A stretch of DNA of 48,976 bases. Source: Dehalococcoidia bacterium (GTDB taxonomy: Bacteria > Chloroflexota > Dehalococcoidia > SM23-28-2 > HRBIN24). Location: the NCBI GenBank assembly GCA_034435615.1, contig DAOTWZ010000079.1, forward strand, positions 1 through 48,976, read 5' to 3'. The notes under the pieces were generated by a model. That model was not told the origin of the DNA. It saw only the letters and a list, made by a program, of their open reading frames with translations, and did no database searches. Of the stretch, positions 1,377 to 6,911 are shown piece after piece. A program made the translations under genes and the position numbers. Numbering within the stretch: the first letter of the stretch is position 1; each line of letters starts with the position of its first letter.

Positions 1377-2831
1377 TCAGACGTCGTAGTAGAGGTAGAA
1401 CTCGTAGGGGTGGGGGCGGAGCCGGATGGGGTCTATCTCCCGCTTCCGCTTGTACTCCGTCCAGGTCTGGAGGAGGTCATGGGTGAAGACGCCGCCCCGC
1501 AGGAGGAAGTCATGGTCTTCCTCCAGGGCACGCAGGGCCTCCTCCAGGCTGCCGGGGACGGTGCGGATGGCGGCGGCCACCTCGGGGGGTAGCTCGTAGA
1601 CGTCGGTGTCCAGGGGGTCGCCGGGGTCCATCTCGTTGAGGATGCCGTCCAGCCCCGCCATGAGAATGGCGGCGAAGGCCAGGTAGGGGTTGCAGGAGGG
1701 GTCGGGCGGGCGGAACTCTACCCGCTTGGCGGCGGGACTGCGCGAGTAGACGGGGATGCGGGCGGCGGCGGAGCGGTTGCGCTGAGAGTAGACCAGGTTG
1801 ACGGGGGCCTCAAAGCCGGGGACGAGCCGCCGGTAGGAGTTGGTGGTGGGGGCGATGAGGGCGCAGAGGGCGCGGGCGTGGGCCAGCAGCCCGCCGATGA
1901 AGTAGAGGCCCAGGAGGCTCATCTGGGCGTAGCCCTCCGGGTCGTAGAAGAGGTTCTCGCCGTTCTTCCAGAGGCTGACATGGACGTGCATGCCGGAGCC
2001 GTTGTCGCCGAAGATGGGCTTGGGCATGAAGGTGACGGTCTTGTCGTGCTCCCGGGCGACATTCTTGAGGATGTATTTGTAGAGCATGACCTGGTCGGCC
2101 ATGCGGGTGAGGGTCTGATAGCGCATGTCTATCTCGCCCTGGCCGGCGGTGGCCACCTCGTGGTGGTGGACCTCCACCTCGATGCCGGCCTGGAGCATCT
2201 TCAGGACGGCCTCCGAGCGGATGTCCTGGAGGCTGTCCACCGGCGGGGCGGGGAAGTAGCCCTCCTTGTAACGGGGGCGGTGGCCCAGGTTCTTTCCCGG
2301 GCGGCCGGCGTTCCAGGCCCCCTCCTCGGAGTCGATGGCGTAGTAGCCCTCGTGCTCGTTCTGGTCGAAGCGGACGGCGTCGAGGATGAAGAACTCCACC
2401 TCGGGGCCGAAGTAGGCGGTGTCGGCTATGCCGGTCTCCGCCAGGTAGCGCTCCGCCTTCTGGGCGATGTAGCGCGGGTCCCGCCAGTAGCGCTCGCGGG
2501 TGACGGGGTCGCGCACGTCGCAGATGATGGAGAGGGTGGGGACGCGGTAGATGGGGTCCAGGAAGGCGCTGGCCGGGTCGGGCACCAGGAGCATGTCGCT
2601 CTCCTGGATGTGCTGGAAGCCCCGTATGGAGGAGCCGTCGAAGCCGATACCCTCGCTGAAGATCGTCTCGTCCAGGGCCCTGGCGGGGATGGAGAAGTGC
2701 TGCAGGGTGCCCGGGAGGTCGGTGAACTTGAGGTCCACCATCTTAACGTCCCCCTCCCGGCAGAGGGCGATGACGTCAGCAGGGGTCCGGGGCCTTCTCT
2801 CCACCGCTCTCCCCTCCTCGCTCGCGGTCAC
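1377..2831 (-). CDS. glnA: Glutamine synthetase type I (GlnA).
   Basis: The 484-aa ORF contains GS motifs ([26 protein letters not shown]) and a C-terminal catalytic domain. It has a GTG start overlapping the upstream gene's TGA stop (GTGA). Confidence 0.9.
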
Positions 2832-4249
2832 TGCTGGCCATCCTCCGGCTGCGGCTGCTGGGGAGCGGGGGCCTGGTCGGCGCCCTTGAGGCCGGGCAGC
2901 CGCCTGAGCAGCTCCTCCAGCTTGACGCCGGTGAGGGCCTCGACGATGGGCGGTAGCTGGGCGATGACCTCGGTGACGTCCCGGGTGACCTTGCTGGCGC
3001 CGGTGGAGTCGCCTCCCCCGGAGATGACGACGATGCGCTCGGTGCGGGCGAGGGGGGCGGCCACGGCTTCGGCCATCTTGGGGAGGACGTTGACCAGGAC
3101 TTCAGTGACGGCGGCCTGGTTGTAGCGGGCCCAGGCATCGGCCTTGCGGTCCATGGTCTGGGCCTCGGAGAGGCCCTTCTCCCTGATGACCTCCGCCTCG
3201 GCGAGGCCGCGGGCCCGCAGCGCCTCGGCCTCCCCCTGGGCCTCCGCCTCCAGGCGGTAGCGCTCCGCCTCGGCCAGGGCCTGGATGCGCTGGCGCTCCG
3301 CCTCGGCGGGACGGATGACAGTGGCCATGAGCTCCCGCTCCTTGCGGAGGATCTCCTTCTCCTCTAGCTCCGTCTGCAGCTCCTTCTCCAGGATGCCGAG
3401 CTGCACCTCCTCCCGCTTGACGAGCTGAGCGGTCTTGAAGCGCTGGAGGTCGTAGGCCAGGTCGGCCTCGGCGCGGCGCTGGTTGATGGCGGCCTCCACC
3501 TCCGCCCGCTTCAGCTCGTAGTCGCGGCGGGCCTCCTCTATCTTGGTGTCCACCTGGTAGCGGTAGGACTTGGCCTCCTCGTCGGCCCTGGCCTCGCCGA
3601 TGATGGCGTCCCGCTTCACCTGGGCGGTGCGAGGGCGGCCCAGGGCCTCCAGGTAGCCGCGGGGGTCGTTGATATTGCGGATGGTGAGGGAGACGATCTC
3701 CAGCCCCATCTTGGCCAGGTCACGGCTGGCCAGCTCCTTGACCCTCTCGGCGAACTCCCGTCGCTGCGTGTAGAGCTCCTCTATGGAGATGGTGCCCAGG
3801 ACGGCCCGCATGTGCCCCTCCACTATCTGGAGGGCGGTCTTCATGATCTCCTCCTGGGGACGGGAGAGGAAGTGCTCGGCGGCGGCCTGGATGGCCTCCT
3901 CGTCCCCCCTGACCTTGACGTGGGCGACGCCGTCCACCGCCACGGGGACGCCATGGACGGTGTAGACCTCCGGCGTCTTGACCTCCAGCCCCATCAGCTC
4001 CAGGGAGAGGCGGCGGGCCTGCTCTATGATGGGCCAGACCACGGTGCCGCCGCCCCAGATGACGCGGTAGCCCAGGGTGCGCCGCCGGCCCTCCCGATCC
4101 ACCACGGTGCGGCGGCGGCCGCTGACGATGAGGACCTCGTTGGGGCCCACCTTGGTGTAGCGGGCGGCCGCCACCGGCAGGAGGACGGGCCAGCCCACAG
4201 CCCAGGCCAGCAGCCACAACAGGGAAGAGAGGGGACGCGCCTCCGTCAT
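2828..4249 (-). CDS. SPFH/band-7 flotillin-family membrane scaffold protein (FloT/YuaG-like).
   Basis: The 473-aa ORF has an N-terminal hydrophobic anchor, an SPFH domain and a long Glu/Ala/Arg-rich coiled-coil region ([26 protein letters not shown]). The ATG at 4249 is preceded by GGAGGTGA. Confidence 0.85.
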
Positions 4250-4255
4250 GGCCCA

Positions 4256-5552: not shown

Positions 5553-5561
5553 GGCGTCCCT

Positions 5562-6833
5562 CTAGCGGGCGTAGGCGCGCTCCCCGTGCTCGGCCAGGTC
5601 CACCCCCACCAGCTCCTCCCGGGGGGAGACGCGCAGGCCCATGGTCCAGTCCAGGAGCTTGAGGATGGCGAAGGTCATGACGAAGGAGTAGCCCCAGGTG
5701 GCGCCGATGCTGGCCAGCTGGGCCAGGAGCTGCTCCGGCCGCCCGTCTATGACGCCGCCGATGCCGCCCCGGAAGCCGGCCGTCTCCGTGACCAGGGCGG
5801 TGGCGAAGATGCCGGTGGCCAGGGCGCCCCAGGTGCCGCCGATGCCGTGGACGGCCCAGACATCCAGGGCGTCGTCCACTCCCAGCCAGCCCCGCAGGCG
5901 CGTCGCCAGGTAGCAGAGGACGCCCGCCCCGGCGCCGATGATGGTGGCGGGCAGGGCGTTGAGGTAGCCATCGGCGGCGTCCCAGGCCCCCACGAAGCCG
6001 GAGGCCGGGGTTATGGCCACCAGCCCCGCCACGGCCCCGGTGGCCGCTCCGGTGACGCTGGGCACACCCTGGTAGGCCCAGCTCATGGCCAGCCAGGCCA
6101 CCGTGGCGGCGGCCGCCGCCGTGTTGGTGACCACGAAGGCGTTGGCTGCGGAGGCGTTGGCCGCCACGGCGCTGCCGGCGTTGAAGCCGAACCAGCCGAA
6201 CCAGAGGAGGGCCGCCCCCAGCACCACGTAGGGGACGTTGTGGGGCTCCATGGGCATCCGCCCCAGCCCCAGCCGCTTGCCGAAGGCCAGGGCCGCCGCC
6301 AGCCCCGCCACCCCCGAGTTGATGTGGACCACCGTCCCGCCGGCGAAATCGTAGGCTCCCAGGCCGCCCAGGACGCCCAGCCAGCCGTTCTGCGCCCACA
6401 CCCAGTGGGCGATGGGAGCGTAGACCAGCGTGGACCAGAGGACGACGAATACCAGGAAGGTGCTGAACTTGGCCCGCTCGGCGAAGGCGCCCGTCACCAG
6501 GGCGGGCGTGATGATGGCGAACATGAGCTGGAAGGCCATGTAGGCCAGATGGGGCACGGTGGCGGCGTAGGGACCGGGCTCGCTCCCCACGTGGCGCAGC
6601 CCGAACCAGGAGAGATCGCCGATGAAGCCGCCGTGGTCCGGCCCGAAGGCCAGACTGTAGCCCCAGAAGACCCAGAGCAGGGAGACGACGGCGATGATGC
6701 TGAACCCCTGCATGATGGTGGCGATGACGTTCTTCTCTCGCACCAGGCCGCCGTAGAAGAAGGCGAGGCCCGGAGTCATGAGGAGCACCAGGGCAGCCGA
6801 GGCCAGCACCCAGGCGGTATCGCCGCTGTCCAT
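5562..6833 (-). CDS. amt: Ammonium transporter (Amt/MEP family).
   Basis: The multi-TM protein carries Amt motifs (GAFAERAKFS, VVHINSGVAGLAAALAFGKR, DDALDVWAVHGIGGTWG). I prefer the ATG at 6833 (MDSGDTAWVL), which follows GGAGGAGA, over the unsupported ATG at 6872. Confidence 0.88.
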   Translation of the reverse strand: MDSGDTAWVLASAALVLLMTPGLAFFYGGLVREKNVIATIMQGFSIIAVVSLLWVFWGYSLAFGPDHGGFIGDLSWFGLRHVGSEPGPYAATVPHLAYMAFQLMFAIITPALVTGAFAERAKFSTFLVFVVLWSTLVYAPIAHWVWAQNGWLGVLGGLGAYDFAGGTVVHINSGVAGLAAALAFGKRLGLGRMPMEPHNVPYVVLGAALLWFGWFGFNAGSAVAANASAANAFVVTNTAAAAATVAWLAMSWAYQGVPSVTGAATGAVAGLVAITPASGFVGAWDAADGYLNALPATIIGAGAGVLCYLATRLRGWLGVDDALDVWAVHGIGGTWGALATGIFATALVTETAGFRGGIGGVIDGRPEQLLAQLASIGATWGYSFVMTFAILKLLDWTMGLRVSPREELVGVDLAEHGERAYAR

Positions 6834-6911
6834 GGTCTCCTCCAGGGGCGCGGGGAGACTACTCCAGCCCATAGAGTGGCGCCGCAGCGGGCAAGCGGGG
6901 TTACCGGCCGG

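Follow-up and report, generated by a model that had tools for sequence, protein, structure and literature searches.

A conserved ammonium-assimilation operon that pairs a flotillin with an undescribed protein family

Ammonium is imported into the cell by the transporter Amt, which is plugged by GlnK at nitrogen sufficiency, and is fixed by glutamine synthetase (GS). In a 48,976-nucleotide contig of a Dehalococcoidia bacterium (DAOTWZ010000079.1, assembly GCA_034435615.1; the whole stretch is referred to as the window), the genes encoding these three proteins are located on the minus strand, from position 6872 to position 1377, together with two others. All five genes are co-directional and have the order amt, glnK, X, flotillin, glnA, in which X encodes a 322-residue protein of an unnamed family. 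What is the role of a flotillin and of an additional protein inserted between a PII gene and the gene of glutamine synthetase? Dozens of independent contigs have this arrangement, and X and the flotillin are very probably functional parts of an ammonium assimilation module. A more specific reading, to which we assign a probability of about 0.45, is that X is a membrane-proximal adaptor connecting Amt and GlnK with both GS and a dedicated flotillin scaffold, in a conserved and co-transcribed module for ammonium capture.

Gene order and its conservation

The order amt-glnK-X-flotillin-glnA and its tight junctions, reported in a preliminary description of the window, are confirmed from the sequence. 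A spacer of 9 nucleotides (nt) separates amt from glnK, the reading frames of glnK and X share 11 nt (ATGCCATTTGA), X is followed after 6 nt (TGGGCC) by the flotillin gene, and the latter overlaps glnA by the 4 nt GTGA. The span of 2828–6872 given in that description does not include glnA itself. A terminator scan of the window identified no terminator-like site at any operon junction, including the stretch between glnK and the downstream genes, where the same description had named a terminator as a point against its proposal; the operon strand has a single match, which is no better than expected by chance and falls within the coding sequence of glnA. An Rfam scan of the window returned three tRNAs only, and nothing relevant to the operon.

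Forty-two loci (numbered with the prefix L below) were gathered by look-ups of X homologues, by one genome scan and one metagenome scan, and by look-ups of flotillin homologues, and they were annotated by comparison with the five window proteins. The loci encoding X represent about 18 distinct lineages; many of the gathered loci are mutual close relatives, and the GTDB genome scan, which rested on two peptide patterns, yielded three of them. The full five-gene order is present in about 8 of the approximately 18 lineages, the hosts being several Dehalococcoidia-like groups of Chloroflexota, Desulfobaccales, a metagenome-assembled genome (MAG) of Omnitrophica (Omnitrophota), and two archaeal MAGs. 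It is found on a 232-kb contig of Methanomassiliicoccales, which carries the archaeal markers L37ae, Pcc1, and prefoldin in the flanks of the cassette, and also in a MAG labeled Halobacteria. The G+C content of the hosts of cassette loci spans 39%–74%. The preliminary description had named an order unique to one genome as a point against its proposal; the order is shared by contigs of several bacterial phyla and of archaea.

The spacing of the genes is conserved together with their order. More than 20 bacterial loci share the 11-nt overlap of glnK and X, and an overlap of 4 nt is present in the two archaeal loci. The gap between X and the flotillin gene is 1–6 nt in most loci, and glnA is often positioned only −4 to 20 nt from the flotillin gene or X. 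A glnA gene lies downstream of X or the flotillin gene in every locus with sufficient downstream DNA, with a single exception that is weighed below. Distances between loci correlate for all five genes (r = 0.80–0.95, Mantel p ≤ 0.002; 9–17 loci with full-length genes), X being the fastest-evolving and GS the slowest-evolving member in this comparison. The correlations fit the inheritance of the five genes as one unit, probably with block transfer.

The cassette has been remodeled in several ways. The cassette of L010/L011 has the order amt-X-flotillin-glnA and lacks glnK, and the X-flotillin-glnA unit of L037 from Armatimonadota has neither amt nor glnK. In one lineage from soil or peat (L027–29, L031/32), X-flotillin-glnA stands behind a shrinking PII gene (Table 1), and in L028 this unit has no adjacent amt. 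Of the short PII genes, that of L027 is intact and those of L028 and L031 carry frameshifts; the 11-nt overlap with X is maintained. The gene may be decaying, or it may encode a mini-PII. X thus remains in loci with no glnK or with a decayed one (L010/L011, L037, L027/28/31/32).

Apart from X, the parts of the cassette belong to known families (Amt, PII, flotillin, and GS of type I); what is new is their assembly and the X family. The transporter of the window scores above the cutoff for the Amt/Mep/Rh family (Table 1). GlnK, the best PDB match of which is 2eg1 (E = 1e-37), combines a P-II domain, the pore-blocking T-loop arginine, residues binding ATP and 2-oxoglutarate, and an adjacent amt gene. 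The residues R46 (the T-loop arginine, equivalent to R47 of E. coli), Q39, K58, the motif G87–K90, R101, and R103 are invariant among cassette GlnKs. The GS, of type I, scores above the cutoff of the GlnA equivalog model (Table 1), contains both PF03951 and PF00120, and has a loop DVYELPPE at residue 412, which we take to resemble the adenylylation loop of E. coli GS. The AmtB-GlnK pair of E. coli is encoded by glnK-amtB, and its complex is known from the structures 2NUU and 2NS1. As in E. coli, the cassette encodes the transporter and PII adjacently, and its GlnK retains the T-loop arginine and the nucleotide- and 2-oxoglutarate-binding residues. By contrast, amt precedes glnK in the cassette, X, flotillin, and glnA are translationally linked downstream, and Tyr51 of GlnK, which is present in the window, is not conserved across the cassettes (glutamine in L020, phenylalanine in L013).

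Protein X and its flotillin partner

The X family comprises 69 representative clusters (numbered with the prefix P) among 1.84 billion proteins, as determined by an exhaustive HMMER search; a second search for homologues with a broad alignment added only P0103, P0104, and P0083. X has no match in Pfam, NCBIfam, PADLOC, PHROGs, or a PDB profile search, and 46 diverse members of the family match no Pfam family, domains of unknown function included, even at E ≤ 1. The predicted structure of X has no significant match among solved structures or viral predicted structures. X fails every family and fold test run here and is a member of an undescribed protein family.

The structure of X, predicted with 30 homologues, is a confident model (predicted local distance difference test 92.1, predicted template-modeling score 0.88). 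In the model, the chain repeatedly forms four or five strands and then a helix, so that X would be built of β-meander-plus-helix modules, each with an LPVY-like motif. Modules 2 and 4 resemble each other with an hhalign probability of 88%, and modules 3 and 4 with a probability of 29%; module 1 resembles the others in the LPVY motif only. The four-repeat architecture is therefore only partly supported. X is not hydrophobic and is read as a soluble protein, and all of its homologues start at the same methionine. The near-invariant residues in the 46 diverse members are mostly proline, glycine, and leucine, with N10, Y60, and N73 as the only polar ones. Because of this composition, X is likely to be a binding protein rather than an enzyme, and is probably non-enzymatic.

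The most direct physical clue to the role of X comes from its domain contexts. In two representative clusters, P0079 and P0068, the X domain is fused to the cytoplasmic C-terminus of Amt; P0079 joins the two through a linker (Table 1) and is encoded on the contig L012, which is too short to reveal the neighboring genes, and P0068 is a fusion of the same type. Nine further representatives have an N-terminal membrane helix. The fusions and the helices indicate that part of the X family resides permanently at the inner membrane face. A different combination is found in the 465-residue P0054, in which the X domain is followed directly, with no membrane segment in between, by a Cache/PDC-type sensor domain; its sequence possibly stops short at a contig end. 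P0054 hints at a signaling use of X in one lineage. A rule by which X would be soluble in the presence of glnK and anchored in its absence was considered and dropped, because L039 encodes a soluble X without glnK and the L027/28 lineage a soluble X beside a decayed PII.

The product of the gene following X is, judged from its domains and alignments, a genuine flotillin of the SPFH2 type. It contains a Band_7 domain (Table 1), and its Pfam Flot domain scores 24.5 bits, under the cutoff of 27. In phmmer searches it aligns with human flotillin-1 over residues 63–447 (E = 2e-91) and with human flotillin-2 over residues 34–447 (E = 1e-84; PDB 9bq2, 9l3g). A hydrophobic segment at residues 9–29 (KD19 score 1.91) is a predicted N-terminal anchor, and residues 225–400 consist to 70% of E, A, R, K, Q, and L, in keeping with a C-terminal coiled-coil region of the flotillin type. 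The score of 379 bits against the FloT equivalog NF058507 is below the cutoff of 700; the protein is a flotillin, but not a FloT equivalog.

Flotillins of the SPFH2 group are canonically encoded in nfeD-floT operons, for example yuaF-yuaG of B. subtilis (PMC2636767). The genomic contexts of flotillins were sampled at six points of the list of homologues of the window protein. All four sampled homologues with 57–65% identity are encoded directly 3' of a gene of the X family and beside amt, glnK, or glnA; the X identity of three of these upstream genes was confirmed by hmmsearch (E = 1e-30 to 1e-88). By contrast, the two sampled homologues with 52–54% identity have an NfeD (NfeD_TM) gene upstream and no nitrogen genes nearby. 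X therefore occupies the operon position of NfeD. The gene upstream of the window flotillin is X, which has no NfeD Pfam match, and tblastn with the NfeD of L041 as a query, which is a weak test, found no NfeD in the window or in the cassette loci. In a neighbor-joining tree of 120 flotillin homologues, a clade of ten longer sequences of the NfeD type excludes all 15 flotillins verified by context to be of the X type, which are about 35 residues shorter than the NfeD type. Monophyly of the X-type flotillins is not supported in this tree, since with midpoint rooting the smallest clade containing all of them is the whole tree. By sequence and context, this group of flotillins is specific to the cassette and paired with X. 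The pair resembles nfeD-floT in that the flotillin has an N-terminal anchor and a partner gene directly upstream. It differs in that the partner is X, a soluble protein of about 320 residues with no NfeD membrane or OB-fold signature, and in that the pair is part of a nitrogen operon.

Promoter, gene starts, and flanking DNA

Three GTAAC boxes are located upstream of amt (Table 1). The pattern GTAACN6GTAAC is unique to this site in the 49-kb window, with two overlapping matches versus 0.12 expected by chance. Three or four equally spaced GTAAC, GCAAC, or TTAAC repeats precede amt in L001, L007, L008, L014–17, L019, L020, and L034 as well. The repeats resemble the GlnR boxes of Actinobacteria. 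The actinobacterial operon amtB-glnK-glnD is preceded by GlnR boxes, and shares with the cassette the succession of amt, glnK, and a third gene, and gTnAC-n6 direct repeats upstream. It differs from the cassette in that the third gene of the latter is not glnD, in that the cassette continues into a flotillin gene and glnA, and in that the host belongs to Chloroflexota. By this analogy, the boxes are a candidate site for a GlnR-like nitrogen regulator of the OmpR family, here in a lineage of Chloroflexota. The window contains no gene for such a regulator; in L020, the C-terminus of an OmpR-type regulator (VRGVGYRF) is encoded directly upstream. Other phyla appear to use other regulators at the promoter-side position: an NrpR-like repressor gene is located upstream of the cassette in Desulfobaccales (L005/L006, 783–1775; L030), and GAF-HTH_8 and HTH_8 proteins are encoded there elsewhere.

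The starts of two genes probably differ from those of the longest open reading frames. ATG 6872 of amt belongs to a conserved upstream element, which does not code for protein in L008, a relative with 63–66% identity; in the alignment, CTCTATGGGCTGG of the window matches ATCTATAGCTGG of L008. ATG 6833 is preceded by the strong Shine-Dalgarno sequence GGAGGAG and gives a product of 423 residues, and the calls of homologues range from 423 to 427 residues. The true start of amt is probably ATG 6833. For glnA, an alternative start GTG 2804 is located 6 nt past GAGGAGGGG, a Shine-Dalgarno sequence better than that at the GTGA overlap. The longest-frame start at 2831 may not be, and probably is not, the real one. 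Initiation at GTG 2804 would replace the 4-nt overlap with a 23-nt spacer after the flotillin gene; with either start the spacing is too small for a terminator. In bacterium HR25, to which the uncultured hot-spring host of the window is almost identical, X carries the annotation of a hypothetical protein and the flotillin that of "YqiK".

Table 1. Coordinates of the operon features and of modified genes in related loci (window positions unless a locus is named)
Feature	Location	Strand	Properties
amt	6872..5562	minus	longest open reading frame 436 residues; PF00909 412 bits; TIGR00836 458 bits (cutoff 343)
glnK	5552..5214	minus	112 residues; PF00543 (P-II) 108 bits
X	5224..4256	minus	322 residues; no Pfam or NCBIfam family
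flotillin	4249..2828	minus	473 residues; PF01145 Band_7 91.4 bits (cutoff 23.6), residues 33–223
glnA	2831..1377	minus	type I GS, 484 residues; TIGR00653 653 bits (cutoff 429)
GTAAC boxes (three)	6900..6926	minus	GTAAC-n6-GTAAC-n6-GTAAC, 11-bp spacing; upstream of amt
Flotillin remnant	L007 8973–9278 (Bacterium HR24, BEIA01000021.1)		N-terminal part of about 45 codons, C-terminal part of about 42 codons; frames differ
Flotillin remnant	L019 7989–8244		N-terminal part of about 45 codons, C-terminal part of about 42 codons; frames differ
Short PII gene upstream of X	L027 2799–3017		about 71 residues, without distal T-loop through β3
Short PII gene upstream of X	L028 about 6790–7011		about 71 residues, without distal T-loop through β3
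Short PII gene upstream of X	L031, L032, L029		about 71 residues, without distal T-loop through β3
P0079, Amt-X fusion	L012 813–3059		full Amt (412 bits), Pro/Ala-rich linker of about 45 residues, X domain

Several cassettes are flanked by further genes of nitrogen metabolism. A second, divergent GS-like gene with 37–39% identity to cassette GS follows the cassette glnA in L013 (4440–5789) and L024 (5511–6755). Glutamate synthase is encoded upstream of the cassette in L010 (1060–5475), and downstream of that of the Omnitrophica locus L004 (9912–12978), together with a GATase and an HTH_8 protein. The flotillin-less cassette of L020 has, directly 3' of glnA, a gene for a 903-residue protein with GNAT and acyl-CoA-synthetase parts (Pat-like protein acetyltransferase; 4231–6942). 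In L009 (599–1903), the contig breaks within X and continues as an inverted copy of amt; the contig is from the same MAG as L008, and the structure probably reflects either a chimeric assembly or an inverted duplication.

The remainder of the window encodes chromosomal housekeeping functions (pdxT, aspartokinase, dnaE, gap, eno, ffh, dnaJ, uvrC, and xerC). A MoxR AAA+ ATPase, a DUF58 protein, and a transglutaminase-like membrane protein are encoded in a row on the minus strand (20439–25144), a common trio unrelated to the operon. A 528-residue protein encoded on the plus strand (8617–10203) has an unusual mix of SpoIIIAA-like AAA ATPase, phosphotyrosine-phosphatase-like, and R3H domains.

Possible functions of the module

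X has four ties to the other members of the cassette. It is linked to Amt and the membrane by the fusions and anchors, to GlnK by the conserved coupled translation of their overlapping genes, to the flotillin by its substitution for NfeD and the close spacing of the two genes, and to GS by the nearly constant presence of glnA downstream. An adaptor is the simplest function of X that makes use of all four. We infer the physical contacts of such a module, the tethering of GS, and the regulator as follows. Under nitrogen scarcity, a GlnR-type regulator would turn on a single mRNA from the GTAAC boxes. Amt would bring in ammonium, and GlnK would plug Amt once nitrogen is sufficient. Non-enzymatic X, the synthesis of which would be translationally coupled to that of GlnK, would sit on or beside Amt and GlnK, at the membrane's cytoplasmic face. 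X would also be the NfeD-like partner of the dedicated flotillin, which would oligomerize on the inner leaflet around a patch of transporters. GS would be held or regulated near the exit of Amt through X and the flotillin, and NH3/NH4+ would be fixed at its entry with limited back-leak. That ammonium uptake and assimilation may be organized in a flotillin microdomain was the idea of the preliminary description, which did not foresee the fusion of X to Amt or the membrane helix of X itself.

Several observations weigh against an adaptor that joins all of these proteins. The flotillin is missing from the cassettes amt-glnK-X-glnA of L018 and L020–23, and only a pseudogene remnant of it is left in the HR24 lineage (L007, L019), in which X and glnA on either side are intact. 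The remnant, which is the same in these two independent contigs, indicates an internal deletion of about 1.1 kb. Because the flotillin is absent or decayed in several lineages that keep X, the scaffold is dispensable; retention of X looks more stable than that of the flotillin, in a survey that covered cassettes with X. L039 has amt-X-flotillin without glnA, and there is no fusion of X with GS among the 69 representatives. The Amts of the cassettes belong to different subfamilies with 33–87% identity, so a direct interface between X and Amt would need to be adaptable. The correlated distances of the five genes are also expected from common ancestry or block transfer without physical contact. 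Finally, all examples of the cassette are metagenomic or derived from MAGs, the taxonomy labels of which are fallible.

Somewhat unlikely, in our estimate, is that X instead mainly receives signals from GlnK: as a PII receptor, it would regulate GS, Amt, or both, be brought to the membrane by the binding of GlnK to Amt, and use the flotillin as an optional accessory. PipX, PirC, DraG, and TnrA are examples of proteins controlled by PII, and DraG and TnrA are additional soluble proteins recruited to Amt-PII complexes, in AmtB-GlnZ-DraG of Azospirillum and AmtB-GlnK-TnrA of Bacillus. X would be like them a third soluble protein that controls nitrogen metabolism from the membrane through Amt-PII. 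It is unlike DraG and TnrA in being unrelated to them in sequence and fold and in being permanently attached to the membrane in some lineages. A receptor of PII would account for the 11-nt overlap of glnK and X, which implies coupled synthesis, for the survival of glnK-X-glnA without a flotillin, for the nearly invariable glnA downstream, and for the fusion of X to a cytoplasmic sensor domain in P0054. However, X is kept in the loci without an intact glnK, including those with a 71-residue PII relic that is often frameshifted. Furthermore, a constitutive fusion to Amt or a membrane anchor is ill-suited to reversible sequestration, and the specific tight pairing of X with one group of flotillins is left without an account.

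It is also conceivable, although we regard it as quite unlikely, that X and the flotillin form a device for the assembly or stabilization of Amt trimers, as a client-specific SPFH chaperone or an organizer of a lipid domain, and that GS is merely co-regulated. Bacterial flotillins are reported, in passages of PMC11222466, to aid the oligomerization of membrane proteins and to stabilize them. The function of AmtB depends on its lipid environment (PMC5736629; also a reference listed in PMC10433425), and lipids affect both the activity of AmtB and its binding of GlnK (PMC5736629). Such a device would agree with the fusion of X to Amt and not to GS, and with the absence of glnA from L039. By contrast, it does not explain the X-flotillin-glnA units of L037 and L028, which have no adjacent amt, or that glnA is the most constant neighbor, often as close as −4 to 20 nt. 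The loss of the flotillin from lineages that keep X is unexpected if the scaffold is an active chaperone.

That X and the flotillin have no functional link to ammonium assimilation, and are passengers trapped in a horizontally spreading nitrogen operon, is very improbable. The identities of 55–82% for the flotillin and 65–86% for GS across phyla and domains point to block transfer, and the correlated gene distances fit a block that travels together. However, passengers would have had to preserve intact frames and conserved overlaps, and to stay under purifying selection, across hosts of 39–74% G+C, there are independent Amt-X fusions, and X remains beside nitrogen genes in cassettes remodeled in several ways. 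We reject, as scarcely credible, the possibility that X is an enzyme modifying PII or GS, analogous to GlnD or GlnE and in the third position like glnD in the actinobacterial amtB-glnK-glnD: no nucleotidyltransferase, HD, ACT, or other catalytic family is detected in X or the 46 members even at E ≤ 1, no set of catalytic-type residues is conserved across the family, Tyr51, the usual modification site of GlnK, is variable in the cassettes, and X persists without glnK.

Extending the adaptor reading, the flotillin could build a closed dome at the membrane's inner face, with Amt trimers, GlnK, X, and a GS dodecamer inside. Ammonium would be fixed in this protein-walled nanocompartment before it diffuses back. 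We regard this extension as improbable. Flotillin-1 and -2 assemble into a closed, membrane-attached dome of 44 subunits, which is 32 nm wide (PMC11260169, PMC13000311). Like HflK/C in its complex with FtsH, the flotillin-1/-2 cage is an SPFH dome that fences off a patch of the membrane, and the window flotillin aligns with flotillin-1/-2 nearly from end to end; a cage formed by the window flotillin is putative. We know of no client demonstrated inside any prokaryotic flotillin cage. If the nanocompartment existed, no prokaryotic flotillin before this one would have had a defined metabolic client, and the assembly would be the first Amt-GS metabolon of a physical kind.

The dedication of an SPFH protein to one membrane protein has precedents. 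A flotillin gene is dedicated to, and co-transcribed with, the gene of a single membrane protein in the case of FArhodopsin (PMC10308929). The cassette flotillin is likewise genomically dedicated to a specific membrane protein; it differs from the FArhodopsin tandem in that its client would be Amt and in that an additional adaptor and the soluble enzyme GS are part of the unit. In human red cells, mutations of RhAG cause overhydrated stomatocytosis (PMC10433425), and stomatin is missing from the membrane in this disease, as stated in a passage of PMC9663324. There, too, an SPFH protein is linked to a member of the Amt/Mep/Rh family, but the cassette flotillin belongs to a different SPFH subfamily and is linked genomically, and stomatin and RhAG are without genomic linkage. 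A functional coupling of E. coli AmtB to GS is described by Javelle 2005, as cited in a passage of PMC10433425.

No description of the cassette arrangement was found in the full-text literature searched, the coverage of which does not extend to all journals, and within this scope the claim that it is not a described arrangement stands. To our knowledge, no physical link between AmtB and GS has been found in E. coli, the limiting of futile NH3/NH4+ cycling is debated, and prokaryotic flotillins are without defined clients. The cassette offers a flotillin with a client that can be read from the genome, Amt and possibly GS, and with a specific partner in the place of NfeD. As a transferable module of five genes, it makes a physical link between Amt and GS testable. 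X adds an unnamed and structurally unmatched family, present in Bacteria and Archaea, to the well-studied Amt-PII system.

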